Source: a virus. Taken from it: DNA of 64,000 bases. The notes beneath the pieces are model-generated. The model was not told where the DNA came from and did not search any database. It was given only the letters and a program-made list of their open reading frames with translations. Below, piece after piece: positions 8,198-64,000 of the stretch. Where the stretch lies: the IMG/VR virus record IMGVR_UViG_3300045988_175028; one strand, 5' to 3'. How positions within the stretch are numbered: the first letter of the stretch is position 1; each line of letters starts with the position of its first letter. A program made the translations under genes and the position numbers.

Positions 8198-8459
8198 CTT
8201 TTTCCTCCACCCAAGAGAGCCAGCGCATTATTAAATCTTTATTACTAAGAAGATAAAGTCCATAAGGGCAATCATGGTTTATTTCACAAAAACTTACTGA
8301 GCTCCCATCATAATCGTCTGTATCTGAACAATTATTACAAAAAGTATCTGTCATCCACTGGTCATAAATTGTACCTTCAAGCGCCATTTGGTCAGATAGA
8401 AATTCTGCCATTTCTTCCATTGAGAGATTTTTAAGCTTTTCAAAATTTGAAAGATTCAT
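8190..8459 (-). CDS. hypothetical Cys-rich protein
   Basis: ORF track starts at a TTG (8468). An ATG at 8459 overlaps the upstream stop (TAATG). Confidence 0.5.
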   Translation of the reverse strand: MNLSNFEKLKNLSMEEMAEFLSDQMALEGTIYDQWMTDTFCNNCSDTDDYDGSSVSFCEINHDCPYGLYLLSNKDLIMRWLSWVEEKDD

Positions 8460-8700: not shown

Positions 8701-9429
8701 TCACCCTCCAGCTTTCATATTTAATTGCTTTTGTGTCCCATACAAGTCGATATAAAATTTTTCTCTCTCACTCTGTTTATCTTTCGGAACTTCTTCTAAA
8801 ATTTCAAAACTGTAATTCCAAATTCCATTCCGCGCCATATGCGTATGAAGCGTTGAGCTGGCAACTTTTTCCATACCTAGCGCTGTCTGAATGTGAGCTT
8901 GCCATCTATCTTTAAAATTGACGGTTCGACCTATATAAGCCTCCCCAGTTGGAATATAAGTAATCTTATAAATTCCTCCAACTTTCTGCCCGACAACCCT
9001 CTTTATCATCTCATTTACAGGGCGCCGAGCAATACTCTCCCATATAACCTTAGGAAGAACTTCTTTATGACATAAATGATTTCTCATACTATCTAAAAGC
9101 TTTATATCTTCAATATCATTTTGCGTAAGTTGGATTTTATAGAAATCTTCTTTTTCGATTAGTTCTCGTTCTCGTCGTATCGCTTCATTTATAGCATCGC
9201 GCCGACTACGAAAATCTTCTAATTCTTTTTTAAGATAGGAAAGTTCATTATTATAACTTCTTTGTTTCGCTTGGAATTCTTGTTGGGCGTTTTCTTCTAA
9301 ATTTTTGTATTTTTCTTCTAAAGCCTTTCGATATAATTTATCAGTATCAGATTTTAGTTTTTGAATTTTTCTTTGTTGTTTTAGTAAAAGAAAAATAATT
9401 CCTAAAATCAATAAAACTAAAACTGCCAT
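8701..9429 (-). CDS. membrane-anchored coiled-coil GIY-YIG nuclease-domain protein
   Basis: N-terminal TM helix (AVLVLLILGIIFLLL), about 90-aa coiled coil, then GIYKITYIPTGEAYIGRTVNFKDRWQAH (GIY..YIG..R). Confidence 0.7.
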   Translation of the reverse strand: MAVLVLLILGIIFLLLKQQRKIQKLKSDTDKLYRKALEEKYKNLEENAQQEFQAKQRSYNNELSYLKKELEDFRSRRDAINEAIRRERELIEKEDFYKIQLTQNDIEDIKLLDSMRNHLCHKEVLPKVIWESIARRPVNEMIKRVVGQKVGGIYKITYIPTGEAYIGRTVNFKDRWQAHIQTALGMEKVASSTLHTHMARNGIWNYSFEILEEVPKDKQSEREKFYIDLYGTQKQLNMKAGG

Positions 9430-27566: not shown

Positions 27567-27711
27567 GGAAGGTTATTGCCTTCTTCACAACTGTAAGCTC
27601 GGTCGGCGCCAAGTACATGAAAAATGTACGAATCCTCATCGAGTAGGTTGCACAGATGGAAAGAAATGTAAACATTTATTGGTTATAAGAAAGGGGATGA
27701 ACACAAAATAA
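27544..27711 (+). CDS. small Cys/His-rich (zinc-binding-like) protein, 55 aa
   Basis: Below the ORF-track cut-off. C..H..C...H..C...H...C.....C.H pattern. Its stop overlaps the kinase ATG (TAATG). Confidence 0.35.
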   Translation: MAWLKRSEEGYCLLHNCKLGRRQVHEKCTNPHRVGCTDGKKCKHLLVIRKGMNTK

Positions 27712-28634
27712 TGTCAGCATTAATTATGTTGATGGGACTTTCTGGTTCTGGAAAAAGCACTTTGGCAGAAGAATATGCTAAGCTGTCTGGTGGAAAAGTT
27801 TTTTCTTCTGACAAAATTCGAGAAGAACTTTTTGGAAATGAAAACAATCAAACTCATAATGGAGAAGTTTTCAACGAGCTTCATAAACGAATTAAAAAAG
27901 CTTTAAGGAAGAACGAAATTTGTATTTATGATGCTACGAATTTAAACAGAAATAAAAGAATTAGCTTTCTTCGTACTCTTTCAGATATCACTTGTGAAAA
28001 AATTTGCATGATGGTTGCAACTCCAATTGAAATTTGTATTAAAAGAGACCAAAACAGAAGCAGAAAAGTTGGGAAAAAGGTTATTCATCGACAAGCTACT
28101 CAATTTCAAATTCCTTTAGATTATGAAGGCTGGGATAGTATTATGATTTATAACAATCCCAATTTTTCTGCCTCAGATTATAAAAAGCTAATTGATTATT
28201 TTCCAAAAGCAGTTATGCCACATGACTGCACACCATGGCATACAGAGAGCGTACAAGAACATCTTAATAGAACTTTAATGGAGATGTCTTTGCGTACTAA
28301 TGAATATTATTTGCTTCTTGCATCACGATATCATGATATTGGAAAATTCTATACTAAGACTTTTTATGATAGAAGCAAAAAGAAGACTACTGATAAAGCT
28401 CATTACTATGGACATGAAAACTATGGAGCCTATCTTTTTATGACCTCCTATGATTTTGTTACAAGTGGAAGTCTCAAACCAGCTTTTGAACAGGCATTGT
28501 TGCTTATTGCTCTTCATATGGAATTTGGTTCAAGAAAAAGTAAAGTTTTAAAAGAAATTCCAAAAAGTGCTCGTGAAGCCTTAGAGCTTTTAAATGAATG
28601 TGATATGCTTGGAAGTGTGAGAGGAGAGGACTAA
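27711..28634 (+). CDS. polynucleotide-kinase-like P-loop domain fused to an HD phosphohydrolase domain (RNA end-healing candidate)
   Basis: N-terminal GLSGSGKST..SSDKIR. C-terminal H..RYHDIGK..HYYGHENYG..ALHMEF (HD superfamily). Confidence 0.65.
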   Translation: MSALIMLMGLSGSGKSTLAEEYAKLSGGKVFSSDKIREELFGNENNQTHNGEVFNELHKRIKKALRKNEICIYDATNLNRNKRISFLRTLSDITCEKICMMVATPIEICIKRDQNRSRKVGKKVIHRQATQFQIPLDYEGWDSIMIYNNPNFSASDYKKLIDYFPKAVMPHDCTPWHTESVQEHLNRTLMEMSLRTNEYYLLLASRYHDIGKFYTKTFYDRSKKKTTDKAHYYGHENYGAYLFMTSYDFVTSGSLKPAFEQALLLIALHMEFGSRKSKVLKEIPKSAREALELLNECDMLGSVRGED

Positions 28635-28979
28635 ATGAAATTTTTTGGAACTTATGGTTGTAGTATGACCAACTCTATTTATAATATTGCTATTGAAGCA
28701 AGGGATGCTCAAAGCGCGCTAAAGTTTTGTTATGATAGTGCAGTAGAGGATAGAGATAGTTATGAAGGGCTTTATGGAGTTGAAACTTGGGAAGAGATTG
28801 CTGAGAATGAGGGTTTTATTATAGGGGAAATGTCTCAAGCGGAAGAGAACTATATTGATGACTTGTATGTTGACTCTATTGAGAGTGATATTATCTATAA
28901 TATAGAGCCTTTTGACATAAATAATGAGGAGCATCTAGAGATACTGAAAGAACAAGAATGTGAATTTTGGCAGGCGTAG
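28635..28979 (+). CDS. acidic hypothetical protein
   Basis: 114 aa, rich in Asp/Glu. Lies between the kinase-HD and ligase genes. Confidence 0.5.
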   Translation: MKFFGTYGCSMTNSIYNIAIEARDAQSALKFCYDSAVEDRDSYEGLYGVETWEEIAENEGFIIGEMSQAEENYIDDLYVDSIESDIIYNIEPFDINNEEHLEILKEQECEFWQA

Positions 28980-28992
28980 AAAGGAGGCTAAA

Positions 28993-30078
28993 ATGGAACT
29001 TCAAAAGTTTCTAATGGAGTATAAAGACGATTGGGAGGAAATCTTGGATAGAGAGCCTTATTGCCTAAAATGGAACAAGTGGAAAGGTTTCGTAAGTTTC
29101 AAGTATAACCAAATTCAGTCTGATTTTTCTAATCCAATTGTCCGCGAAGCCAGAGGAGCAGTCTTTGTGGAAGAAACTTGGGAGTGTGTATCTAGAGCAT
29201 TTGATAAGTTCTTCAACTATGGGGAACCTAATGCTTCTGCAGTTGATTGGACCACCGCGCGGATTATGGAGAAAATAGACGGGTCGCTGATGCGTCTTTT
29301 CTACTGGAAAGGCGAATGGTATCTAGTTACCAATTCTGGTATCGATGCATATTCTGCACCGACTGGTAATGTGAATTATCCGACTTTTGGGCGTATTTTT
29401 GAGGAAGGTCTTCGGAATTTGGGATATAAAAGTTTAGAGGATTTTTGTAATAAACTAAACAAGTATCGGACTTATATGTTTGAGTTGGTTAGTCCTTATA
29501 CTCGTGTAGTAATTCCCTATGAAAGTATTGGAATTTATTATCTTGGAGAGCGCAGAATGATAGATTATCAGGAGTTTTATTGTCCTCCTGTTTTTCCAGA
29601 GTTTTGTCATCCTAAACTTTATAACTGTTCTAATCTTTTTGATTTGATTAGAATGGCGCAAGAGCTTCCTTGGGATAAAGAGGGCTATGTTGTATGCGAT
29701 AAAAACTTCAATCGTATCAAAGTTAAGTCTCCTCAGTATGTTCTTGCTCACTACGTCCGCAATAATAACGTAATTACAGAAGAGCGCCTAATGGAAGTAA
29801 TCCTAAAAGGAGAAATTGAAGAGTTTTCTTGCTACGCAAGTGAATATCTTCCCAAATTACAGGAACTTCAGAAGAGAAAATCTACTTTACAAGCAGAGGC
29901 TGAACTCCTTCGTTCTCTTCTCCAGTCCCAGTTCCATTTTACCTCCCGAAAGGAGTTCGCCTCTACTGTAAATAAAATTTCTAATCCAGTAATTCGCCAG
30001 TTTTGTTTTAGTGATAAGACTTGGGAAGATATGACCAAAGATTGGTCTGCAAAAAAGTGGGTTGAGAAATTGAAGTAA
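28993..30078 (+). CDS. ATP-dependent RNA ligase (T4 Rnl1-like)
   Basis: Motif I MEKIDGSL (KxDGS), motif III YMFELV, motif IV KEGYVVCD, motif V RIKVKSPQY. 361 aa. Confidence 0.7.
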   Translation: MELQKFLMEYKDDWEEILDREPYCLKWNKWKGFVSFKYNQIQSDFSNPIVREARGAVFVEETWECVSRAFDKFFNYGEPNASAVDWTTARIMEKIDGSLMRLFYWKGEWYLVTNSGIDAYSAPTGNVNYPTFGRIFEEGLRNLGYKSLEDFCNKLNKYRTYMFELVSPYTRVVIPYESIGIYYLGERRMIDYQEFYCPPVFPEFCHPKLYNCSNLFDLIRMAQELPWDKEGYVVCDKNFNRIKVKSPQYVLAHYVRNNNVITEERLMEVILKGEIEEFSCYASEYLPKLQELQKRKSTLQAEAELLRSLLQSQFHFTSRKEFASTVNKISNPVIRQFCFSDKTWEDMTKDWSAKKWVEKLK

Positions 30079-55192: not shown

Positions 55193-55561
55193 TTAGTTGA
55201 CCTTGATGTAGCCGCGCTGAGCACTCTTCTTGCCCTCGACCTTCACATCGACCTTCTCCACAGTGCCATCCAGCACGAAGGGCTTCAGGAGAGAGGGAAC
55301 AGAGGCTACCTTTACTTCATCAGTAAGGCCAGCTGCCTCAATAAGCTGGGCGGCAGTCATGCCCTCCTCATTCATTGCGTTCAGAAGAGCCTCACGGATG
55401 GGAGCCTTCTCATCCTCAGCGGCCTGCTTCTTTTCCAGAACCTTCTGGGCTCGCTTTGCATTAGCTTCATCCATCTTCTCGATAAGCTCAGTGGCCTTAG
55501 CCATCAGCTCGTCATTCATCTCACCGTTGGAAATAGCAGTATAGAACTCACGATTGGTCAT
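55193..55561 (-). CDS. hypothetical protein, paralogue of 58567..58914 (MTNREF.. family, wHTH-like C-terminus)
   Basis: ATG at 55561. GC-richer than its surroundings. Confidence 0.55.
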   Translation of the reverse strand: MTNREFYTAISNGEMNDELMAKATELIEKMDEANAKRAQKVLEKKQAAEDEKAPIREALLNAMNEEGMTAAQLIEAAGLTDEVKVASVPSLLKPFVLDGTVEKVDVKVEGKKSAQRGYIKVN

Positions 55562-55749: not shown

Positions 55750-56004
55750 ATTTTATAAGTAAGAAAAATAGGTCACTAAAAATGCGTTTTTTTCAAAAGT
55801 GGAATTCCAGCTTTTCTTTTCTAAAAATTTGGAGCTTATTTGCAGCTTATAAGTCGTAGCTTATTTGCATGCTCAAAATTTGACAAGGGGTAGAATTTGA
55901 CAGTGGCCGGCGCGAATAAGAATTAGGAGTGAGAAGTTGACTTTAACGATTTAGTGTGTTAAAGTGAGAAAATTTTTTCGTAGAAAATTTGAAAAAAATA
56001 AAAT

Positions 56005-56023
56005 TTAGACGATATTCGTCTAA
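56005..56023. repeat. cassette palindrome TTAGACGA-N3-TCGTCTAA, copy 1
   Basis: ttagacgatattcgtctaa. Confidence 0.8.
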
Positions 56024-56041
56024 TTATTTTTTCTAAAAAGA

Positions 56042-56063
56042 AACGGCGCACTCAGCGCCGTTA
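56042..56063 (-). terminator. hairpin after the 56065 gene
   Basis: AACGGCGC-actca-GCGCCGTT. Confidence 0.5.
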
Positions 56064-56064
56064 T

Positions 56065-56259
56065 TTAAAAATTCATGAGGGGTTCTTCTTCATTAAGTTC
56101 ATGATTCCAAAATTCCCTTCTGCAAAGAAAACAAGAGATATCGCTACAATAATCTCCTTCAATTCTCATATTTAATTGACAAGGGCTAATACTTGGAATA
56201 TTATCATCAGTCCGACTTGCTTCAGGAAACATTTCAAAAAACTTTTCTTTTCTTGTCAT
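56065..56259 (-). CDS. small Cys-rich protein (CxxCRREFW motif)
   Basis: ORF with RBS AAAGGAGA. Confidence 0.55.
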   Translation of the reverse strand: MTRKEKFFEMFPEASRTDDNIPSISPCQLNMRIEGDYCSDISCFLCRREFWNHELNEEEPLMNF

Positions 56260-56287
56260 TTTATTTCTCCTTTCTTTTTATAAATAA

Positions 56288-56316
56288 AGTATAACACAAA
56301 TCTTCTAACTTGTCAA
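56288..56316 (-). promoter_or_regulatory. early-type promoter TTGACA-N17-TATACT
   Basis: Minus-strand reading; located 12 nt from palindrome copy 2. Confidence 0.6.
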
Positions 56317-56328
56317 GTACAAAATTTA

Positions 56329-56347
56329 TTAGACGAAATTCGTCTAA
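56329..56347. repeat. cassette palindrome, copy 2
   Basis: ttagacgaaattcgtctaa. Confidence 0.8.
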
Positions 56348-56399
56348 ATTTTTCTCCGAAAAAAACTTCACCGCATTAAAGCGGTGAAGTCCTCTAAAT

Positions 56400-57146
56400 T
56401 TAACGAATCTTGAAAATATTTTTTGTTTTGTAGTAAGTTGCGCTTTCGCCCTCAATGGTAAATTTCCCGCCTTTGGTGTCAATCGTGAAAATCTTTTTGA
56501 CTTTTCGAGGAATGGAACGGCGGGCAGTATAGTCTCCGTTGATATCTGCCCCTTTTTCTAAACAATGGAACAGAATTTCGGTTTCAATCAATGCATCAGA
56601 AAGGGCGGTGTGGTCTTCGGAAAAATCGGGATTGTTTCGGATGTATTGTGTAATGGTTTCGGCGGTGGTGGAATAGTTTCCGCTTTCGGTAAATGCTTCG
56701 TGTTTCTCTGCCCATTTGAAAAACTTTTCATCCATCATGAAATGATGAACAAAACCCCGAATATCGGAAATAGGAACGGTGTCAAAGGGATTTATACACT
56801 TGAACCAATCACAGTTAAAATTGAATACTTTTTCATCAAAAAATGAATTGTAAGCAAAAGCCCGTTCGATGTTGAACGCCTTAAAGTCTCGTGCCATTGT
56901 CTGCGTAATATATCCGAATTTGTCCATAGCGATTGCACGGGAACGCATAGCCTTTACATAAATAGGACGCTTGTCTGCATAATAAGCAGACGCAAAAATC
57001 ATTGAATTGTGCCACACCTGCTCCACGACAAATTCCCGCTTAACAAGCGTTTCTCCGCTTTCGCTATCGGCGATAAGATAGCCGATATTATAGCAAAAAG
57101 GTTTTTCCAGGGAAGTCGTCTCCGTGTCGAAAATACAAATATTCAT
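56400..57146 (-). CDS. DEDD-family (DnaQ-like) 3'-5' exonuclease
   Basis: Exo I FDTETT and Exo III HTALSDA. Confidence 0.75.
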   Translation of the reverse strand: MNICIFDTETTSLEKPFCYNIGYLIADSESGETLVKREFVVEQVWHNSMIFASAYYADKRPIYVKAMRSRAIAMDKFGYITQTMARDFKAFNIERAFAYNSFFDEKVFNFNCDWFKCINPFDTVPISDIRGFVHHFMMDEKFFKWAEKHEAFTESGNYSTTAETITQYIRNNPDFSEDHTALSDALIETEILFHCLEKGADINGDYTARRSIPRKVKKIFTIDTKGGKFTIEGESATYYKTKNIFKIR

Positions 57147-57205
57147 TTTTCAATCTCCAATCAAAATTATTATAAGGGTTTACCATCGTTCTCCTTACAT
57201 TATCT

Positions 57206-57233
57206 ATTATATCAGATTTTCCGGAAATGTCAA
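57206..57233 (-). promoter_or_regulatory. early-type promoter TTGACA-N16-TATAAT
   Basis: Minus-strand reading. Confidence 0.6.
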
Positions 57234-57255
57234 GAACTTTTTCAAAAAATAAAAA

Positions 57256-57274
57256 TTAGACGAATTTCGTCTAA
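57256..57274. repeat. cassette palindrome, copy 3
   Basis: ttagacgaatttcgtctaa. Confidence 0.8.
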
Positions 57275-57326
57275 AAATAAAAAGAAGGGAGAAATATTTC
57301 TCCCGTAATTTACTTTTTATAAAAAT

Positions 57327-57500
57327 TCAACGATATTCTTCTTCCAATCTAAAAAGAAGTTCTTCCAAAATATCCTTTCGGACAATGTAAAGTTTTTCTC
57401 TCTCAGGCATGGGAACATATGGTAAATAAAAAAGATTAGAGATTTCTTCATAGTTGTGGAGCAATTCTTCTGTTGTAAGATTTTTGTGGTTGATATTCAT
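57327..57500 (-). CDS. small hypothetical protein (57 aa)
   Basis: RBS AAAGGAGA. Below the ORF-track cut-off. Confidence 0.45.
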   Translation of the reverse strand: MNINHKNLTTEELLHNYEEISNLFYLPYVPMPEREKLYIVRKDILEELLFRLEEEYR

Positions 57501-57530
57501 TATAGTTCTCCTTTCTTTTACTATATCTAA

Positions 57531-57559
57531 ATTGTAACAAAGATTTTTGTAATTGTCAA
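57531..57559 (-). promoter_or_regulatory. early-type promoter TTGACA-N17-TACAAT
   Basis: Minus-strand reading. Confidence 0.6.
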
Positions 57560-57571
57560 GTATAAAATTTC

Positions 57572-57590
57572 TTAGACGAACTTCGTCTAA
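57572..57590. repeat. cassette palindrome, copy 4
   Basis: ttagacgaacttcgtctaa. Confidence 0.8.
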
Positions 57591-57629
57591 AAAAGAAAGG
57601 AGTAATATAAAATATTACTCCTAATGATT

Positions 57630-57842
57630 TTATTCGACAACCACTTTTGCCTTTAAGATATAAACTCCGCTATTTTGGTCTTGGTCTTCTCCCCACGTCC
57701 AAAGCTCACCTGTTTCAAGATTTACGGCTGTTTGGCCTTCACACATAAGATTTATAGTTTCATCTGCTGCATCTTTAAAAGCCTCTCCGGGACTGACTTC
57801 ATGATACTGATACAAATTATTACTTTCATATCTAATCAACAT
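57630..57842 (-). CDS. hypothetical protein
   Basis: ORF with an RBS. Confidence 0.55.
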   Translation of the reverse strand: MLIRYESNNLYQYHEVSPGEAFKDAADETINLMCEGQTAVNLETGELWTWGEDQDQNSGVYILKAKVVVE

Positions 57843-57873
57843 TTTTATTTTCTCCTTTCTTTACTGTAATTAT

Positions 57874-57901
57874 AGTATAACAGATTTTCTTTATTTGTCA
57901 A
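57874..57901 (-). promoter_or_regulatory. early-type promoter TTGACA-N16-TATACT
   Basis: Minus-strand reading. Confidence 0.6.
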
Positions 57902-57913
57902 GTATAAAATTAT

Positions 57914-57932
57914 TTAGACGAATTTCGTCTAA
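57914..57932. repeat. cassette palindrome, copy 5
   Basis: ttagacgaatttcgtctaa. Confidence 0.8.
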
Positions 57933-57979
57933 ATTTTTCTACAAAAGAAAAAGGTGACGATTTCTCGCCACCCTTTCGA

Positions 57980-58336
57980 TTACTCGTTATTTACGTTTTC
58001 TCGTTCAGTTTTCTTTGCCCTTGCCTTTTCTCGTGCGAGGCGGTCTTTCTCCATTTTCTTTTGCTTCTTCTCCTCTCGTTCTGCCTTGGCCTTGGCTTTG
58101 GCTTCGCTTTCAAGGCGATAATTTTCAGCTTCTTCATAGCCATCAAAGAGGTCACCGTCCCTCGTTCCCTTGGGAACGCTAAAGGTGAGGTTTAGATAGC
58201 CTTCATCGTCATCCAGCGCCCACGGAATCGAATAAGTTCCGCTCTTAATCTGAAGAACAGTTTCTCCCTCACTTTCGAGAAAATTCTTGACTTTCTGCAT
58301 AAAGTCCATTTTTACGACTTCACTTTTCTTTGCCAT
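57980..58336 (-). CDS. hypothetical protein with Lys/Glu-rich C-terminal tail
   Basis: ORF with an RBS. Confidence 0.55.
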   Translation of the reverse strand: MAKKSEVVKMDFMQKVKNFLESEGETVLQIKSGTYSIPWALDDDEGYLNLTFSVPKGTRDGDLFDGYEEAENYRLESEAKAKAKAEREEKKQKKMEKDRLAREKARAKKTERENVNNE

Positions 58337-58367
58337 TCAAAGCACTTCCTTTCTTTACTGTACTTAA

Positions 58368-58396
58368 AGTATAGCACAACTTTCTTTTTTTGTCAA
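58368..58396 (-). promoter_or_regulatory. early-type promoter TTGACA-N17-TATACT
   Basis: Minus-strand reading. A second TTGAAA-N17-TATAAT lies about 45 nt upstream. Confidence 0.6.
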
Positions 58397-58498
58397 TACT
58401 TCTTTTCTTATTTTCTAAAATTATTATAACAAAAATTTTTTTGAATTTCAAATTTTCTTTAATACTTTAGTATGGTAAAGCACCGAGATCGATTTTAT

Positions 58499-58517
58499 TT
58501 AGACGAAGTTCGTCTAA
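58499..58517. repeat. cassette palindrome, copy 6
   Basis: ttagacgaagttcgtctaa. Confidence 0.8.
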
Positions 58518-58566
58518 ATAATTTTTCCCCAAAAAAGGACGGTGATTTCTCACCGCCCATTTTTTC

Positions 58567-58914
58567 TTACTCGGTCACAAGACTGTACTGCTTCTGCTTA
58601 CCCTTCTTGGGAATCTTCACTTCCTCAACTGCCAGCTTGCCAGCTTCCACAAGCTGGCGGCACAGAGAACTAATCTTCTGCGTGGAGAGGTCTGCGTCTG
58701 CCTCATGGATTTCGCTTGCTGTCATAGGCTTGACGGCCAGAATCTCCAGCAGATGGGCCTTGATAGGCTCGTTCGCAAGCTGGGTCTTGCTGGGCTTGGA
58801 ACTCCGCTGGGCGTTCCGCTTGTCCAGCTTCTCCAACTCGGCGGTGGCGTGGCTGGTCAGCTCGTCATTCACGTTAGCATTGATAATGGCATTGAAGAAC
58901 TCACGATTGGTCAT
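58567..58914 (-). CDS. hypothetical protein, paralogue of 55193..55561
   Basis: MTNREFFNAIINANVNDEL.. with a wHTH-like C-terminus. GC-richer than neighbouring genes. Confidence 0.55.
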   Translation of the reverse strand: MTNREFFNAIINANVNDELTSHATAELEKLDKRNAQRSSKPSKTQLANEPIKAHLLEILAVKPMTASEIHEADADLSTQKISSLCRQLVEAGKLAVEEVKIPKKGKQKQYSLVTE

Positions 58915-58994
58915 AATTTTCTCCTTTCATCGGCGGATAGGTCGCCACCCATTTTTATATTCAAAAGAGGCGTTCCTCTCTTGATTACATATTT

Positions 58995-59023
58995 ATTATA
59001 TCAAAGGTGCGGGGATTTGTCAA
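58995..59023 (-). promoter_or_regulatory. early-type promoter TTGACA-N17-TATAAT
   Basis: Minus-strand reading. Confidence 0.6.
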
Positions 59024-59105
59024 GAGGGAATTTCAATTTCTTGAAATTTTTTCGGCTTAATCCTGATGGGAGCGACCCACCATTGAGCTGCTCTTGACAT
59101 TACCC

Positions 59106-59134
59106 ATTATAGCACCTTTGATAGAGTTTGTCAA
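59106..59134 (-). promoter_or_regulatory. early-type promoter TTGACA-N17-TATAAT (no ORF downstream)
   Basis: Minus-strand reading. Confidence 0.55.
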
Positions 59135-59280
59135 GAGGTTTTTCAACTTTTTTATTTCTTCGGGTGATGACTCCGCAGAAATTGATTGAAAAGATGGGCA
59201 ACTTTTCTTCAGCCATCTATGAGGGCCATCAGTTTCTCATTTCGCTGACTACTCATTTGCTTTCCCTCTTGACATTATCT

Positions 59281-59308
59281 ATTATATCAGATTTCTTGAA
59301 AATGTCAA
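59281..59308 (-). promoter_or_regulatory. early-type promoter TTGACA-N16-TATAAT (only a 15-codon ORF downstream)
   Basis: Minus-strand reading. Confidence 0.55.
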
Positions 59309-59341
59309 TACTTTTTTCAAAAAAATTTTGAAAAATATTTT

Positions 59342-59360
59342 TTAGACGAAGTTCGTCTAA
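59342..59360. repeat. cassette palindrome, copy 7
   Basis: ttagacgaagttcgtctaa. Confidence 0.8.
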
Positions 59361-59422
59361 ATAAAAAGTGAAAAAGAACGGTGCATTTAGCGCCGTTCCT
59401 ATTATCTGTCATAAAACAATCT

Positions 59423-59743
59423 TTACTTGATTCTCACCAAAAACCAATGATTGTGGATTTTTTTTGCCTTCTTATCATGCAGAAGGCAGACATTTTTAGA
59501 TAATTTATAAATAGTTTCTTTATCTGTCTCTGTGGTGATTGCTTCTTCAAATCGTTGCTGTGTTACTGGAATGAAAAAGTTTCTAAAAAAGACATAAGGA
59601 AAACTTCCTATCCAGATAAAGGGATAAAACAAAGCAAACAAAAAAACTTCCCAAAGGTTCTCAAAATCGATTTTGTAGGACAAAAGAACCGTCAAGAAAT
59701 TTGATACTACGACAGAAATCAAAATCCAGTACCAAGCAACCAT
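59423..59743 (-). CDS. membrane protein
   Basis: Two TM helices (WYWILISVVVSNFLTVLL; FLFALFYPFIWIGSFPYVFF). Confidence 0.55.
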   Translation of the reverse strand: MVAWYWILISVVVSNFLTVLLSYKIDFENLWEVFLFALFYPFIWIGSFPYVFFRNFFIPVTQQRFEEAITTETDKETIYKLSKNVCLLHDKKAKKIHNHWFLVRIK

Positions 59744-59774
59744 TTTTATTTTCTCCTTTCTTTACTGTAATTAT

Positions 59775-59803
59775 AGTATAACAGAAATTCTCTAACTTGT
59801 CAA
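59775..59803 (-). promoter_or_regulatory. early-type promoter TTGACA-N17-TATACT
   Basis: Minus-strand reading. Confidence 0.6.
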
Positions 59804-59815
59804 ATACAAAATTTA

Positions 59816-59834
59816 TTAGACGAATTTCGTCTAA
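59816..59834. repeat. cassette palindrome, copy 8
   Basis: ttagacgaatttcgtctaa. Confidence 0.8.
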
Positions 59835-59882
59835 ATAGAAAGATAGGAACGATGTAAAACACCGTTCCTTTTGACATTTCTC

Positions 59883-60113
59883 TTATTTAGCGATTTCCAG
59901 TTTGTTAGTAGAAGCAAACGTCCGGAGGATGTTAGCCGCAAGTGCGATGTCATGTCTATCATAGCTTTCACCCGTCAAGGTGTTGGAGGCCTGTTCATAG
60001 TCATTCTCTTCGATGATTCCATACAATTCGTCAAGAATGTTAAAGGCATCGTACAGAGTTTTCGGTTCGGTTCCGGTTAACTCGATATGCCTAACAGTAT
60101 TGATAACTTTCAT
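59883..60113 (-). CDS. hypothetical protein
   Basis: ORF with an RBS. Confidence 0.55.
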   Translation of the reverse strand: MKVINTVRHIELTGTEPKTLYDAFNILDELYGIIEENDYEQASNTLTGESYDRHDIALAANILRTFASTNKLEIAK

Positions 60114-60162
60114 TCTTTATTGTCTCCTTTTTTAAAATTTGGTTGCTCTTTACTGTAAATCT

Positions 60163-60191
60163 ATATTATCATATTTAATTAAATTTGTCAA
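60163..60191 (-). promoter_or_regulatory. early-type promoter TTGACA-N17-TAATAT
   Basis: Minus-strand reading. Confidence 0.55.
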
Positions 60192-60214
60192 TACTTATTT
60201 TTTTTATTTTTATT

Positions 60215-60233
60215 TTAGACGATATTCGTCTAA
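60215..60233. repeat. cassette palindrome, copy 9
   Basis: ttagacgatattcgtctaa. Confidence 0.8.
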
Positions 60234-60284
60234 AAATTTTTTCTAAAAAGAAGGAACAGTTTCTTTCCTTCTTTTTAGAACTTT

Positions 60285-60614
60285 TTAACCGACCGTCTCT
60301 ATCTGATGAATAATCTCTTCCGCAGTTAAAAAACCGACAACATCTTCTTCATCATCAAACGGATAACCCATTACTTCGATTAAACCTTCTTGATGCCCAT
60401 AACTTCCAAAATGACAAACGGCATCCCCGATTCTTTCGTCAGTTTGCGGTCTTAAAAAAATAATCTGCGGCCGGCCATATAGCTCTTCGACCTTCCAATC
60501 TATCGGACAGCAAACTCCTTGAGTAGTAAGAATTTTAATAAGTTTGTCGATTTCGGTTTCTTCGGGAATCCCACCAAACATGGACTCATAGGACTTATAA
60601 TCAATAGTATTCAT
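60285..60614 (-). CDS. hypothetical protein
   Basis: ORF with an RBS. Confidence 0.55.
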   Translation of the reverse strand: MNTIDYKSYESMFGGIPEETEIDKLIKILTTQGVCCPIDWKVEELYGRPQIIFLRPQTDERIGDAVCHFGSYGHQEGLIEVMGYPFDDEEDVVGFLTAEEIIHQIETVG

Positions 60615-60643
60615 AAAAATTTCTCCTTTCTTTACTATATCTA

Positions 60644-60673
60644 TATATTACTATATTTAATTAGATTTGTCAA
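60644..60673 (-). promoter_or_regulatory. early-type promoter TTGACA-N18-TAATAT
   Basis: Minus-strand reading. Confidence 0.5.
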
Positions 60674-60696
60674 GTAAAATTATAAAAAATTTTATT

Positions 60697-60715
60697 TTAG
60701 ACGAAATTCGTCTAA
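60697..60715. repeat. cassette palindrome, copy 10
   Basis: ttagacgaaattcgtctaa. Confidence 0.8.
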
Positions 60716-60753
60716 ATTTTTCTTTGGAGAAAAAGGGAATTTGCTTTCCCCTT

Positions 60754-61194
60754 TTATCTCGCCAAAACTTTTAAAACGCTTTCCATTGCATCAGGATGAA
60801 ATCCACCCATTCCCCAGTCAATTAGATTTCTTGTTTCATCATCAAACAGAATATCGTCAGAGGAAGAACGGAAACTCGTCTTCTTTGTCCCATATTCTAC
60901 AATATGAATTTCATCAAAGGAAACACTTCTCAAATGCTGACGCAACCAGCGTATTTTTTCAGCCTTTACGGCTTCAAGAAAAGCGGGGTTTTTGTCTTTA
61001 CTTCCCCATGAAATCACGCCAATCTTTACACCCTTTCGCTGAACCCGGTTCAGCTTGCGTGCCAGCGTATTCATATTGCAGAGGGGGCGAGCCTCTGCGT
61101 AGACTTTTGCGTCATAGGCCCGCAAGCGAGGCAACCAGTCTTTTGTGCTGTACAAGTCGGCAATCGTGCCGTCCATATCAAGAAAAATAGTCAT
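60754..61194 (-). CDS. HAD-superfamily phosphatase (5'-deoxynucleotidase-like)
   Basis: FLDMDGTIADL (DxDxT motif). About 145 aa. Confidence 0.65.
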   Translation of the reverse strand: MTIFLDMDGTIADLYSTKDWLPRLRAYDAKVYAEARPLCNMNTLARKLNRVQRKGVKIGVISWGSKDKNPAFLEAVKAEKIRWLRQHLRSVSFDEIHIVEYGTKKTSFRSSSDDILFDDETRNLIDWGMGGFHPDAMESVLKVLAR

Positions 61195-61225
61195 AAATTT
61201 AATTCCTTTCCTTTATTGTAATTAA

Positions 61226-61254
61226 ATTATAACAGAAATTTTCTTATTTGTCAA
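61226..61254 (-). promoter_or_regulatory. early-type promoter TTGACA-N17-TATAAT
   Basis: Minus-strand reading. Confidence 0.6.
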
Positions 61255-61266
61255 GTATAAAATTAT

Positions 61267-61285
61267 TTAGACGAATTTCGTCTAA
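61267..61285. repeat. cassette palindrome, copy 11
   Basis: ttagacgaatttcgtctaa. Confidence 0.8.
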
Positions 61286-61328
61286 AAAAATTCTATAAAA
61301 AAGGCGGGATTTCTCCCGCCAATTTCAA

Positions 61329-61616
61329 TCAGACAAAAATTTCTTTTAGTTTTTCCTCTACCTCTGCTTGAAGTTCAGAAACCATTGTCCTCATACGGAA
61401 ACCACCTTCTTCTTCTGCAAAATCGGCCAAATCCCTGAAAGCATCATAAACTTTTTCAAGTTTATTGGTGGTGTATTTCTTGAAACAAACACCATCTTCA
61501 TATAGGAAAATTTCCAGAGGGTCGCCCTCTCGAATACCAACGCTCCGCCGAATTTCTTTAGGAATAACGACACGCCCTAAATCATCAACTCTGCGAATAA
61601 TACCTGTTGCTTTCAT
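61329..61616 (-). CDS. AbrB/SpoVT-family (swapped-hairpin) DNA-binding regulator
   Basis: MKATGIIRRVDDLGRVVIPKEIRRSVGIREGDPLEIF. ATG at 61616. Confidence 0.75.
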   Translation of the reverse strand: MKATGIIRRVDDLGRVVIPKEIRRSVGIREGDPLEIFLYEDGVCFKKYTTNKLEKVYDAFRDLADFAEEEGGFRMRTMVSELQAEVEEKLKEIFV

Positions 61617-61651
61617 TTTTTTTACTACTTCCTTTCTTATTTTGTAATTAC

Positions 61652-61680
61652 AGTATAGCATACAAAAGTGTAAATGTCAA
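61652..61680 (-). promoter_or_regulatory. early-type promoter TTGACA-N17-TATACT
   Basis: Minus-strand reading. Confidence 0.6.
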
Positions 61681-61692
61681 GAGGAATATTTT

Positions 61693-61711
61693 TTAGACGA
61701 TATTCGTCTAA
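61693..61711. repeat. cassette palindrome, copy 12
   Basis: ttagacgatattcgtctaa. Confidence 0.8.
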
Positions 61712-61772
61712 TTTTTATTTTTTTGAAAAAATAGCGCCGAAGCACTATTTTTTCAACTGAAGCGCTATTTTT

Positions 61773-61877
61773 TCAACCGAAAGTAATGAAATTTTTATCC
61801 CCACTTGCTTTCCAAGGGTGATTGATTCCAAGATTTTTCAGGAAAAAATAAATCTTGATTCTCTTAAAAATTTTCAT
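61773..61877 (-). CDS. 34-aa peptide
   Basis: RBS AAAGGAGAAAACT before the ATG at 61877. Confidence 0.35.
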   Translation of the reverse strand: MKIFKRIKIYFFLKNLGINHPWKASGDKNFITFG

Positions 61878-61891
61878 AGTTTTCTCCTTTC

Positions 61892-62068
61892 TTACCAGCC
61901 CATAGAAAAAATCCAGCCAATGAAAAACACAGCTCCCAGCGCATACAGCCCAGCTCCCACGCCATAATGCCAATCGTGGCTTTTTACGAACGAATACGCA
62001 CCCATAAAGGACATACCAGCACACGCAAGCCCAGCGGACAGAATACACAGCACAGCGACAACAACCAT
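61892..62068 (-). CDS. 58-aa hydrophobic membrane peptide
   Basis: RBS GGGAGG before the ATG at 62068. Sequence MVVVAVLCILSAGLACAGMSFMGAY...GLYALGAVFFIGWIFSMGW. Confidence 0.5.
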   Translation of the reverse strand: MVVVAVLCILSAGLACAGMSFMGAYSFVKSHDWHYGVGAGLYALGAVFFIGWIFSMGW

Positions 62069-62097
62069 TTCAGAAACCTCCCTTTCAGTATATCTAA

Positions 62098-62126
62098 ATT
62101 ATACACCAAATTTCGGAAAATGTCAA
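62098..62126 (-). promoter_or_regulatory. early-type promoter TTGACA-N17-TATAAT
   Basis: Minus-strand reading. Confidence 0.6.
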
Positions 62127-62138
62127 GAAAAATATTTT

Positions 62139-62157
62139 TTAGACGAATGTCGTCTAA
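62139..62157. repeat. cassette palindrome, copy 13
   Basis: ttagacgaatgtcgtctaa. Confidence 0.75.
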
Positions 62158-62162
62158 ATTTT

Positions 62163-62180
62163 TTGTGAAATCTTTCACAA
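62163..62180. promoter_or_regulatory. perfect TTGTGAA-N4-TTCACAA palindrome (Rex / CRP-FNR-type operator), site 1
   Basis: ttgtgaaatctttcacaa. Confidence 0.5.
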
Positions 62181-62200
62181 GCACTGTTCGTCTAAATTTT

Positions 62201-62218
62201 TTGTGAAAATATTCACAA
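62201..62218. promoter_or_regulatory. perfect TTGTGAA-N4-TTCACAA palindrome, site 2
   Basis: ttgtgaaaatattcacaa. Confidence 0.5.
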
Positions 62219-62280
62219 ACTTTTTCAAAAAAAGAAAAGAGGGAAAAATTCCCCTCTTTTCAATTATACATACCTTTTTG

Positions 62281-62508
62281 TTATTCGTCCCAGTTATCAT
62301 TTTTCCATCGACCTACATCGCCGTAATGGTCAATGGTTTCAATTCCTCTAAAATAGCCTCTCTGCTGGATTTCATAGGTAAGCCGGGCGCCGTTCTCTAC
62401 GGTATTATCCAGATAGCCGATGATAGTGTAGATTGTGCGTAAATCTGCGAATTGCTGGATGGTGACAACGCCGGTATCCTCATAGTGAACGATAAGACGA
62501 TAATTCAT
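62281..62508 (-). CDS. hypothetical protein, tandem paralogue A
   Basis: MNYRLIVHYEDTG.. with the ATG at 62508. The 5' UTR is duplicated along with the gene. Confidence 0.55.
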   Translation of the reverse strand: MNYRLIVHYEDTGVVTIQQFADLRTIYTIIGYLDNTVENGARLTYEIQQRGYFRGIETIDHYGDVGRWKNDNWDE

Positions 62509-62552
62509 AATGTTTCCTTTCTGCCCGTCATGCCGATAGCCCAGCCTCTTTT

Positions 62553-62780
62553 TTAGCCCCAGCGGACGTTTGTCCATTCTCCAATAGGTTCCCCAGCATA
62601 GTTGATAACTTCAATGTCTCCATTCTCATTCCGATATTGAAGCTCGTACCCCACCTCTGCGCCATTCTCCATAGCACAGTCCAAGCAATGCATGAGGTTC
62701 CATGCATCGTCAGCGTCATTGAATGGGACAGTGTTCACTTCACAGGTTCTTTGCCACCGGATAACCAAGCGATAGTTCAT
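62553..62780 (-). CDS. hypothetical protein, tandem paralogue B
   Basis: MNYRLVIRWQRTC.. Confidence 0.55.
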   Translation of the reverse strand: MNYRLVIRWQRTCEVNTVPFNDADDAWNLMHCLDCAMENGAEVGYELQYRNENGDIEVINYAGEPIGEWTNVRWG

Positions 62781-62823
62781 AGCGTTTCCCTTCTCCCCGT
62801 CTCGCCGTTAGGTCAGCGTTCTC

Positions 62824-63069
62824 TTATTGCTGGGTCAGTTCCGCATGATAGGCTTGTAGGAACAGGTCTCTATAAGTGTCATCCCACAGCACTTCAATCT
62901 CTTTGCCCAGCTCCCCATTGCCATGTTCGTAGGCGATACACGCTGCCATGTGTGCCATACCGAAAGCCACATTGTAGCAGTCTCTGGCCTTGAATCCGTT
63001 GTCCGGAGCTTTCGCATAGTTTAAATAGCGATTGAGGCTCTTCTTCACGAAGTCGATAGTCATAGTCAT
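62824..63069 (-). CDS. hypothetical protein
   Basis: ORF with an RBS, in a GC-richer segment. Confidence 0.55.
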   Translation of the reverse strand: MTMTIDFVKKSLNRYLNYAKAPDNGFKARDCYNVAFGMAHMAACIAYEHGNGELGKEIEVLWDDTYRDLFLQAYHAELTQQ

Positions 63070-63122
63070 GTTCCTTTCTCTGGTGGGCTGGGCTTGATAA
63101 GCCCAGCCCTATTGATTGATAC

Positions 63123-63671
63123 TTACAGGGTCAGCCCCTCAAAGTCTGCACTTGTGTAATCTCTTGTACGGTCAAACGCAACTGGCCATTGCAACAGTCG
63201 TTGATACAGCTTTTTAGAACTAACTTGAATTCCCAGCCCGTCATACTCACCATGCTTGTTCACTGTCTTTATGGCGTTCACTTCCTGAACACAATTCAGG
63301 AACAGGGCAGTTGGAATAATAAGCGGGCCAATAGAACGATGTTCCTCCCATGCTTCTGTCTTTTTCCCGGCTTTATGGCGTTGAACATATTCCATAACAT
63401 AGATAACGAATTTACTTTTGTTCGTCCCATCAATGAGGCTATCAATGCGTCCGCCGTTCGTCTTAACCTCTGCTGGGATGTAGCGTCCGTTGTACTTGAT
63501 ATGAACGTCAGCCCGTCCAGCAGAGCTTACACACTTCTTTCGGCTCTTTGGCCTTGCACACTGATTTTCAGTGATACGTCCAAAATAACCGCTATCAATG
63601 GCGGGATTATAGCGTGCAGAATCCAGCGCCCGCACTGCGTCCTCTTTGGTTAAAATAGTAAAGTCTTTCAT
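63123..63671 (-). CDS. hypothetical protein, possible PD-(D/E)xK nuclease fold
   Basis: GRADVHIKYNGRYIPAEVKTNGG (D...E.K pattern). Confidence 0.4.
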   Translation of the reverse strand: MKDFTILTKEDAVRALDSARYNPAIDSGYFGRITENQCARPKSRKKCVSSAGRADVHIKYNGRYIPAEVKTNGGRIDSLIDGTNKSKFVIYVMEYVQRHKAGKKTEAWEEHRSIGPLIIPTALFLNCVQEVNAIKTVNKHGEYDGLGIQVSSKKLYQRLLQWPVAFDRTRDYTSADFEGLTL

Positions 63672-63809
63672 AGTAAAAAATCCTTTCTTTTGATTTTGTG
63701 GTTTTCAGTTTTCAAGATACACGCTGTATTAGGCATCAGCACCGCCCCGCTCTATTGTTCCCTTGTGTCTATTATACTACCATACCCCGCCCCGAAAGTC
63801 AATAGTTTT

Positions 63810-63828
63810 TTAGACGACTTCAGGCTAA
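63810..63828. repeat. degenerate cassette palindrome (copy 14)
   Basis: ttagacgacttcaggctaa. Confidence 0.5.
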
Positions 63829-63905
63829 AAACTGCACAAAAAGAGGAGGGGGATGTTTTGTAAAATTGTGCATTTTGCCATCCCTCGCCCGAATCGGGTC
63901 TGGAA

Positions 63906-64000
63906 AATTTTCTCACCGAGATTAAAAATCAAAAACAAAACTTACAAATTTTCTCACCGAGATTAAAAATCAAAAACAAAACTTACAAATTTTCTCACCG
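63906..64000. repeat. perfect 41-bp tandem direct repeat, at least 2.2 copies, truncated by the window end
   Basis: tctcaccgag.. recurs at 63911, 63952 and 63993. Confidence 0.85.

Follow-up and report, generated by a model that had tools for sequence, protein, structure and literature searches.

In phage phi29, the protein p4 acts from an inverted-repeat site that lies upstream of the promoter, on the promoter's helical face, and contacts the carboxy-terminal domain of the alpha subunit (alpha-CTD) of RNA polymerase; it activates one promoter, represses a strong one by over-stabilising the polymerase and shuts its own promoter. In cluster A mycobacteriophages, an asymmetric 13-bp repressor site is present in tens of copies, the stoperators, which are oriented with transcription and block elongation in lysogens. 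The promoter-early stem-loop (PeSL) elements of T4-like phages are known shuffling points of early genes (PMC2839356, PMC4122927). They belong to T4-like myoviruses of Gram-negative hosts, and recombination between copies was shown experimentally to give rise to mini-circles (PMC2839356, PMC4122927). In the case of SPbeta, the protein MrpR (YopR), which has a tyrosine-recombinase fold, has lost the catalytic residues and maintains lysogeny, binds the repeated element SPBRE at ~10 early promoters or operons (PMC10516654). The locus compared with these systems here lies in the uncultured phage IMGVR_UViG_3300045988_175028 (genome ~100 kb), of which a stretch of 64,000 nt, the window, was analysed. 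An array on the minus strand of the window is punctuated by a 19-bp palindrome, TTAGACGA-N3-TCGTCTAA (pattern TTAGACGANNNTCGTCTAA), and is headed by a gene, 63123-63671, whose product is referred to as the leader protein. Among related phages the protein and the palindrome occur together and vary together, the palindromes are helically phased with the promoters that follow them, and the junctions between cassettes fall within the palindrome.

The palindrome and the array-leader gene

The window holds 13 exact matches to the palindrome, all within 56005-62157, compared with 0.03 expected by chance, and none of 100 shuffles reached 13; the palindrome octamer occurs 30 times against an expected 1.8, and in the window as well as in the relative L131 (relatives are given by locus number) the early region of the phage itself is enriched 13-33 fold in sites. 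A preliminary description of this DNA had listed the 13 full copies (starts 56005 to 62139) and a degenerate copy at 63810, which were all recovered, the latter being TTAGACGACTTCAGGCTAA with three mismatches. Of the two isolated half-sites that it gave, 21141(+) stands, 62187 should read 62188(-), and 16703(-) has to be added; those outside the array (21141, 16703) are at chance level, with ~1.8 octamers expected per window. The array itself had been counted as about 14 single-gene cassettes. It consists instead of 12 palindrome-led units preceded by a 4-gene leader operon (63671-62281), and several of the units contain more than one open reading frame (ORF) or more than one promoter. The contrast in GC content that had been noted between cassettes holds, with gene values spanning 0.32-0.54. 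On the minus strand, the order within a unit is gene, GC-rich hairpin with T-run, palindrome, AT-rich spacer, sigma-A promoter, ribosome-binding site (RBS) and next gene. The cassette promoters are near-consensus and often TG-extended (TTGACA-16/17-TATAAT), the RBS is AAAGGAG, and both are present behind 12 of the 13 palindromes, the exception being the copy at 56005.

For the comparison with relatives, 20-kb loci were fetched around homologues of the winged helix-turn-helix (wHTH) gene of the array, and all ORF families were scored as present or absent. L091 and L093 carry cassettes orthologous to those of the window (nucleotidase, wHTH, 118-aa gene and others) at 80-88% nucleotide identity, but in both GCCCGGGC replaces the window's palindrome and fills every gap between a terminator and the next promoter; the window palindrome is absent from the 20-kb stretch of L091 and present once in L093, as an orphan. 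GCCCGGGC is used by more distant relatives as well, and one of them, L100, has GGCCGGCC. When the literature was searched for GCCCGGGC between phage genes and for arrays of this type, the PeSL papers were all that came up. The family of the leader 63123-63671 is found in 10 of 11 loci with the window's palindrome (type A) and in none of the seven type-B loci. At the array head of L091 and L093 stands an unrelated protein of 155-175 aa, with homologues in the other type-B loci except L101, and a 47%-identical member of this second family accompanies GGCCGGCC; a profile-profile comparison of the two leader families gave no detectable homology. The leader family is the only gene family that is universal in type-A arrays and missing from type-B arrays, whereas the exonuclease, nucleotidase, wHTH and 118-aa cassettes occur with both palindrome types.

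The pairing of protein and site extends to remote homologues. A profile scan of IMG/VR with the leader family returned 24 loci with homologues 32-98% identical, and 23 of these hold an array of a cognate palindrome of 19-21 bp, while the 24th ends right after the gene. The palindrome arm is TTAGACGA where the leader is at least 90% identical to the window protein, TTAGACGT at 33-52%, TTAGACTA at 34% (L127) and TTCGTACGT at 32-34% (L126, L129), and the 3-bp centre geometry is common to all four arm variants. Two contigs from other collections likewise pair the leader with an array, L103 with 10 and L104 with 15 sites. In all, at least two unrelated leader protein families and six site types were seen.

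The palindrome keeps discrete distances from the promoter. In the window, the -35 element follows after 12 nt in seven units, as the preliminary description had stated for all copies; the other distances are 22-23 nt (three units), 33 nt and 47 nt (one unit each), and no promoter lies behind 56005. In the window's clade as a whole the distance is 12, 22-23 or 31-33 nt (Rayleigh R 0.81-0.83); in distant arrays with a leader of the same family, whose spacers are unrelated in sequence, it is 8-9, 18-19, 27-30 or 39 nt (122 non-redundant sites), with a Rayleigh R of 0.91 at a 10-bp period. Such phasing is the signature of a protein whose position around the helix would be fixed with respect to RNA polymerase. 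With a standard start site, the window's sites would be centred near -57, -68 and -78; where the spacer is 18 nt, an A-tract lies at the place of the proximal UP element. In 15 of the 16 arrays examined in this respect, the full sites are all located on the downstream side of the leader gene (the exception is L130), and most independent arrays carry half-sites (TTAGACG or CGTCTAA) at the leader's own promoter, where ~0.02 such heptamers are expected per promoter region. In L098, L125 and L130 these half-sites lie inside the spacer between -35 and -10 of the leader promoter, the classical position for autorepression.

A third line of evidence comes from the junctions. The preliminary description had proposed to compare cassette order and content in related phages, and blastn of the window array against relatives indeed returned reshuffled, cassette-sized blocks that end at the palindrome/promoter motifs and recur in varied order and combination. 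In addition, 149 distinct type-A junctions were anchored at the palindrome and compared position by position. Pairs that share the downstream cassette only are 0.43-0.51 identical at -5 to -2, which is background (0.41-0.68 in unrelated pairs), stay at background up to -1 and reach 0.87-0.98 at +19 to +23, while pairs that share the upstream cassette only are 0.83-0.91 identical at -5 to -1 and fall to background from +19. Since identity flips between -1 and +19 in both classes of pairs, the homology switch lies within the 19 bp. This switch, together with the different cassette content of relatives, supports the earlier suggestion that the element is a recombination scaffold. The central base is 48% identical between orthologous junctions whose flanks are 85-100% identical, and this variability would fit frequent exchange, or breakage and repair, at the site. 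L091 and L093 differ by a one-cassette indel that is bounded exactly by two GCCCGGGC copies. A closing site without a promoter is found in the window and in 8 of 9 complete arrays of relatives; because the arrays end in it, each cassette is flanked on both sides (n cassettes, n+1 sites). Finally, at 8437-8457 L093 (contig 3300045988_180318) has a single type-A palindrome in an otherwise GCCCGGGC-type array with a type-B leader. This copy arrived inside a cassette block from a type-A phage, and the hybrid array thus documents exchange between the two array types.

Proposed role of the leader protein and competing explanations

The explanation ranked first, at about even confidence, takes the palindrome to be the operator and boundary element recognised by its cognate leader protein, and at the same time the place where cassettes cross over. 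In this mechanism, host sigma-A RNA polymerase would transcribe the leader operon from its half-site promoter, and the leader protein, presumably as a dimer, would occupy the full palindromes between each terminator and the next promoter, on the same helix face as the -35 element. By contacting RNA polymerase it could control the dozen early units as one regulon, where recruitment or activation is slightly preferred over shut-off as the direction of control, and the half-site at the leader promoter would provide autoregulation. It is also at the palindrome that related phages would gain, lose and exchange cassettes: crossovers would concentrate there because it is the sole perfectly conserved block between unrelated cassettes and lies in the only untranscribed gap. 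Leader binding, dimer formation, the sign of regulation and any cleavage are inferred here from sequence comparison. An operator for a dimeric regulator had been considered in the preliminary description, with an AbrB-like protein of the array as the candidate; the helical phasing supports the principle but not the regulator named, since it is the leader that co-varies with the site.

Several observations weigh against this operator reading. L131 (contig IMGVR_UViG_3300028797_000140) carries 33 exact sites in 16 kb, and neither the 20 kb examined nor the collection scan contained a leader homologue. Common ancestry could account for part of the co-occurrence of leader and palindrome. In the second family, the sites (GCCCGGGC, GGCCGGCC) are unphased with the promoter (R 0.07-0.11, p ~0.6-0.8), so that a promoter-coupled role may not be general. 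The near-consensus cassette promoters should need no activator, and the promoter-less closing site is not needed by a pure operator. As for the protein, the fold evidence is weak (no significant match in the PDB, one in BFVD and a sub-threshold one in Pfam), and the invariant E..D..ExK pattern would be retained in an active nuclease but could be dispensed with in a pure regulator.

The last point leads to the second-ranked explanation, which is possible but rather less probable, namely that the leader cleaves or nicks DNA site-specifically, that the breaks it makes at the palindromes are mended by recombination or religation, so that cassettes are cut out, inserted and reassorted among co-infecting relatives, and that the phasing is secondary. 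Such a system would be the restriction-enzyme equivalent of integrons or of PeSL mini-circles. The leader belongs to a large family (172 matches) that is unannotated; a cluster look-up returned "hypothetical protein" only, and no match was found among PHROGs or, by sequence profile search and Foldseek, in the PDB. E35, D55, E68-x-K70 and KTNGGR are invariant across homologues 31-98% identical. An AlphaFold2 (AF2) model (predicted local distance difference test score, pLDDT, 92) has an alpha-beta-beta-alpha-beta core, in which the motif residues are placed on a helix and on two strands next to each other, in the order expected for the PD-(D/E)xK nuclease core. The single significant Foldseek match in BFVD is annotated "Restriction endonuclease" (E 2e-6, template-modelling score, TM, ~0.5), and Pfam gives a sub-threshold match to PDDEXK_9 (E 0.029). 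The protein is therefore described as PD-(D/E)xK-like, a name that makes no claim of nuclease activity. Inspection by eye only gives the second leader family an E..D..QxK pattern and with it a tentative PD-(D/E)xK reading. Its sites GCCCGGGC and GGCCGGCC are identical to 8-bp rare-cutter restriction sites, namely the recognition sequences of SrfI and FseI, and they are unphased with promoters. The position of the homology switch inside the palindrome, the variable central base, and the n+1 sites with a promoter-less closing copy also speak for a nuclease, as does the GCCCGGGC-bounded indel, whose site is too short for ordinary homologous recombination, and the window encodes a Sak4-like annealase and a DNA ligase. 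On the other hand, a phage that cleaves its own DNA at 13 or more positions soon after infection would seem to pay a high price, and a scan of the 20 larger window ORFs revealed no methyltransferase. Phasing with the -35 element and half-sites in the promoter of the leader are typical of transcription factors, a conserved block of 19 bp would be a crossover hotspot for recombinases even without cleavage, and the fold assignment is weak.

The operator and nuclease readings are not mutually exclusive. It is tentatively suggested, at a confidence slightly below that in the nuclease itself, that large Gram-positive phages possess a self-contained cassette-exchange system in which the leader cuts or nicks between transcription units, rejoining or recombination shuffles ready-to-express early genes among co-infecting phages, the specificities of enzyme and site define compatibility groups, and the same protein reads the sites as operators.

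It is improbable that a factor of the Gram-positive host binds the palindrome and that the match with the leader merely reflects shared ancestry. L131, with its 33 sites and no detectable leader, would be explained in this way, and look-alikes of host operators do occur in these arrays, resembling the Rex box in the window and the LexA box in L100 and L101. However, a scan of one genome per species (185,579 bacterial and archaeal species) found only 48 isolated single matches in unrelated taxa, so that none of the bacterial genomes scanned holds more than one isolated copy. Because these matches are scattered and single, the palindrome is not the site of a host regulon, and the scanned genomes contain no prophage with such an array. 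Moreover, close phages with the same cassettes (80-88% nucleotide identity) have replaced all sites and the leader together, and the four arm variants track the divergence of the leader.

It is very unlikely that the palindrome acts at the RNA level, whether as an additional weak terminator or as a 3'-terminal hairpin involved in stabilising or processing the transcript. An 8-bp hairpin (dG -7.4 kcal/mol) can form from it, with A/T runs on either side, and terminator plus second hairpin bear a sub-threshold resemblance to the cow-rumen-4 RNA (31 vs 48.5 bits). The preliminary description had entertained a weak intrinsic terminator. This idea fails, as a separate hairpin with T-run lies ~10-25 nt before all 13 palindromes; the best RNA fold of the 70 nt upstream of each copy has a dG of -13.7 to -22.7 kcal/mol, so that the palindrome would be mostly untranscribed. 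It is the sequence of the stem that is conserved rather than the pairing. The exact palindrome occurs in 34 IMG/VR stretches, nearly all from ~12 contigs of 90-120 kb, and in the window and related stretches (225 kb) 164 copies are exact, eight have one mismatch, none has two and two have three mismatches. None of these 174 copies, including the eight one-mismatch variants, shows a compensatory change in the stem. The central base is the sole freely varying position, and in an alignment of 52 non-redundant junctions the information content of the palindrome exceeds that of the -35 hexamer. A purely structural role as terminator or RNA hairpin is excluded because the sequence is constrained without compensatory pairs, and the better upstream terminators point the same way. 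In addition, the equivalent GCCCGGGC and GGCCGGCC sites cannot form a hairpin, and the palindrome is phased with the promoter downstream of it.

Just as improbable is an operator of the AbrB/MazE-like (61329-61616) or wHTH (58567-58914) protein, both plausible DNA-binding folds within the array (MazE_antitoxin, E 1.7e-11; weak helix-turn-helix PHROG matches), the latter in a cassette with three tandem promoters that nearly all relatives keep: the AbrB-like cassette is missing from many palindrome arrays (e.g. L006, L012, L007, L023), and the wHTH protein, equally present in type-A and type-B phages, is 88% identical with the same putative recognition helix in L091, whose 20-kb stretch is free of the palindrome.

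If the leader and the palindrome are paired as in the first-ranked reading, one early protein would read one palindrome at every early promoter, a simple, experimentally tractable wiring rule for the host-takeover genes in a clade of uncultured phages of 90-120 kb, probably from rumen and gut, and the evolution of the early region by gain and loss of whole cassettes at base-pair-precise junctions would be explained. The matched series TTAGACGA, TTAGACGT, TTAGACTA and TTCGTACGT, with GCCCGGGC and GGCCGGCC alongside an unrelated protein, is a ready data set on protein-DNA specificity in a small, unannotated PD-(D/E)xK-like family. For the annotation of metagenomic phage contigs, the palindrome offers a practical marker by which early transcription units, and with them candidate anti-defence or takeover genes, can be delimited.

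Coordinates of the array and neighbouring features

The features of the array are collected in Table 1. Three gene assignments of the preliminary description bear on it: the HAD nucleotidase is confirmed as NT5C-type, the AbrB-like protein is indeed of MazE/AbrB fold, and the DEDD exonuclease retains weak PHROG support only. Among the genes of the leader operon, the second and fourth are type-A specific among near relatives and are not conserved in distant arrays.

Table 1. Leader operon, palindromes and palindrome-led units of the array, in minus-strand order.
Feature	Position	Strand	Distance to -35	Genes and remarks
Array-leader gene, 182-aa PD-(D/E)xK-like protein	63123-63671	-		Proposed palindrome partner
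Leader promoter TTGACT-17-TAGTAT (63802-63774) with degenerate palindrome (63810-63828) just upstream	63774-63828	-		One half-site intact
Remaining leader operon	62281-63069	-		Genes 62824-63069, 62553-62780, 62281-62508; without internal palindrome; terminator 62261-62234
Palindrome 1	62139-62157		12 nt (-35 at 62126)	Membrane peptide 61892-62068 and small ORF; extra half-site 62188-62195
Palindrome 2	61693-61711		12 nt (-35 at 61680)	MazE/AbrB-fold gene 61329-61616; terminator 61320-61303
Palindrome 3	61267-61285		12 nt (-35 at 61254)	NT5C-like 5'-nucleotidase 60754-61194
Palindrome 4	60697-60715		23 nt (-35 at 60673)	109-aa gene 60285-60614; terminator 60280-60241
Palindrome 5	60215-60233		23 nt (-35 at 60191)	76-aa gene 59883-60113; terminator 59869-59845
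Palindrome 6	59816-59834		12 nt (-35 at 59803)	Membrane protein gene 59423-59743
Palindrome 7	59342-59360		33 nt (-35 at 59308)	Further promoters 59134, 59023; wHTH-like gene 58567-58914; terminator 58558-58537
Palindrome 8	58499-58517		47 nt (-35 at 58451)	Second promoter 58396; 118-aa gene 57980-58336; terminator 57977-57948
Palindrome 9	57914-57932		12 nt (-35 at 57901)	70-aa gene 57630-57842; terminator 57622-57598
Palindrome 10	57572-57590		12 nt (-35 at 57559)	57-aa gene 57327-57500; terminator 57304-57287
Palindrome 11	57256-57274		22 nt (-35 at 57233)	Exonuclease-like gene 56400-57146
Palindrome 12	56329-56347		12 nt (-35 at 56316)	64-aa gene 56065-56259; terminator 56062-56042
Palindrome 13	56005-56023			Terminal copy closing the array; no promoter follows

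The exonuclease-like, NT5C nucleotidase, 118-aa and wHTH cassettes form a conserved core that is present in 12-13 of 14 distant arrays. The pair of nuclease and 5'-nucleotidase is reminiscent of the pre-early genes for host-DNA degradation in phage T5. The wHTH gene is preceded by three consensus promoters (58915-59340 (-), -35 at 59308, 59134 and 59023) without a convincing ORF between them, and a few bases past the -10 element of each follows the conserved stretch GTCAAGAG, which also follows promoters in L091, L099, L100 and L101. The stretch may represent a leader element or a small RNA; an Rfam scan of this promoter region gave no match. A paralogue of the wHTH-like gene (58567-58914) lies at 55193-55561 (-), so that one copy is within the array and one just past its closing site. 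Both start with MTNREF, have the highest GC content of the region (0.54 and 0.52, respectively) and are kept across type-A and type-B phages.

Further palindromes of other kinds occur near the sites. Just upstream of palindrome 1, two perfect TTGTGAA-N4-TTCACAA palindromes (62163-62180 and 62201-62218) flank the extra half-site, and one to three copies are found in nearly all close relatives; presumably this is the consensus of Rex, the redox repressor of Gram-positive bacteria, and the sites may represent an input of host Rex to the membrane-peptide cassette. In some type-B arrays (L101, 5.7-12.8 kb; L100, 3.2-4.3 kb) a second palindrome, CGAACAT(A/G)(T/C)GTTCG, lies 5-10 nt upstream of the GC palindrome and well away from the promoter. 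Its sequence is similar to the LexA (Cheo) box of Gram-positive bacteria, and GAAC-N4-GTTC has 16 copies in L101. At 60216-60280 (-), the terminator hairpin together with the palindrome scores 31.1 bits with Rfam cow-rumen-4 (RF02948), whose gathering score is 48.5 and whose second stem and loop differ in sequence and length from those of the window. A literature search on cow-rumen-4 RNA found nothing; this orphan motif may be an analogous inter-cassette element of other rumen phages. Beyond the leader promoter, tandem copies of ~40 bp (aatctcggtgagaaaat) separate it from a gene cluster on the opposite strand, both at the window end (63900-64000) and in L091 (6690-6800). L131 has TTGTATACAA iterons at the equivalent place (3830-3945), and the repeat region may be an origin or a genome-end feature.

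Outside the array, the window encodes a two-subunit topoisomerase II, helicases, DNA and RNA ligases, the Sak4-like annealase, tail fibres and an Amidase_3/CW_7 endolysin, as well as a tRNA array and a ROOL RNA. This gene content points to a large virulent phage of a Gram-positive host, whose habitat is probably the rumen or gut. Concerning lysogeny, no type-A array was found in the scanned bacterial genomes and, in the 20 larger ORFs scanned, no integrase. Against 50,697 GenBank phages, the array gave no match by Megablast and the two leader proteins gave no useful match by tblastn, and the topoisomerase is at most 31% identical to that of any cultured phage; thus, no cultured relative is available. 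The full-length ROOL RNA (22094-22688 (+), 302 bits) and a RAGATH-33 RNA (20165-20277 (+)) sit inside the array of ~11-13 tRNA genes (16.7-21.9 kb (+)). A protein with a GIY-YIG domain (8701-9429 (-)), located between topoisomerase and helicase genes, is likely to be a free-standing homing endonuclease, and an AAA_33 + HD kinase/HD-domain protein (27711-28634 (+)) adjoins the RNA ligase (28960-30078 (+)), which suggests a tRNA-repair pair.

Comparison with known systems

With type II restriction-modification the array may share, at most, the kind of protein: motif and topology of the leader fit a PD-(D/E)xK endonuclease, with one match in BFVD, none in the PDB and a sub-threshold one in Pfam. 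Unlike in restriction-modification, the sites are enriched rather than avoided in the phage's own genome, and the 20 larger ORFs scanned contain no methyltransferase. As with stoperators, one short site is present in tens of copies in the intergenic regions of one phage; here, however, it is palindromic, confined to the early array and phased with the promoters. The likeness to phi29 p4 lies in the upstream inverted repeat on the helix face of the promoter, whereas fold and site are unrelated, and p4 acts at few promoters of a 19-kb genome with no link to cassette exchange.

Integrons provide a parallel in terms of bookkeeping, since single-gene cassettes are bounded by palindromic sites (n cassettes, n+1 sites), the sites are homogeneous within a lineage, as in chromosomal integrons, and the content differs between close relatives. 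By contrast, integron cassettes are promoterless, while each cassette here has its own promoter and terminator; the attC sites are conserved in structure and measure 60-120 bp, while the palindromes are invariant in sequence and short (19 bp); and the candidate enzyme is restriction-endonuclease-like. Integrons also have the tyrosine recombinase IntI and an attI site beside the array; here, no recombinase family was detected among the genes called beside the arrays or among those window proteins that were scanned.

The SPBRE/MrpR system resembles the array in that one conserved element stands at many early promoters of one genome and is read by a phage protein with the fold of an enzyme, binding being predicted in the present case. 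Indeed, genes near the arrays of distant relatives match the SPbeta YonB, YonD and YonG Pfam families. The leader differs from MrpR in being PD-(D/E)xK-like with catalytic-type residues kept, a distinction made by motif, and the palindrome differs from SPBRE in being perfect, in standing at every cassette junction and in its lytic context.

PeSLs and the palindrome array agree in their overall design. In both, a terminator, a stem-loop, an early promoter of the sigma-70 type, a Shine-Dalgarno sequence and a start codon are repeated between the small genes of a hyperplastic early region, and in both the motif is tied to indels or replacements of single ORFs between close relatives. They differ in that the stem-loop of a PeSL is itself terminator-like and variable in sequence, whereas here a separate terminator is combined with an invariant palindrome (164 of 174 copies exact). 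Furthermore, the crossover maps inside the palindrome and not anywhere in the promoter motif, and the palindrome varies in step with a dedicated phage protein and keeps helical phase with the promoter. Finally, the phage is not T4-like and its host is Gram-positive, as judged from the sigma-A-type promoters, the Amidase_3 + CW_7 endolysin and the SPbeta-like Yon neighbours in distant relatives. The architecture is categorically new only if exchange driven by a nuclease is demonstrated, and otherwise combines known kinds; if the leader does cut, the array would be a new kind of gene-cassette system and a third route to modular exchange beside integrons and PeSLs.

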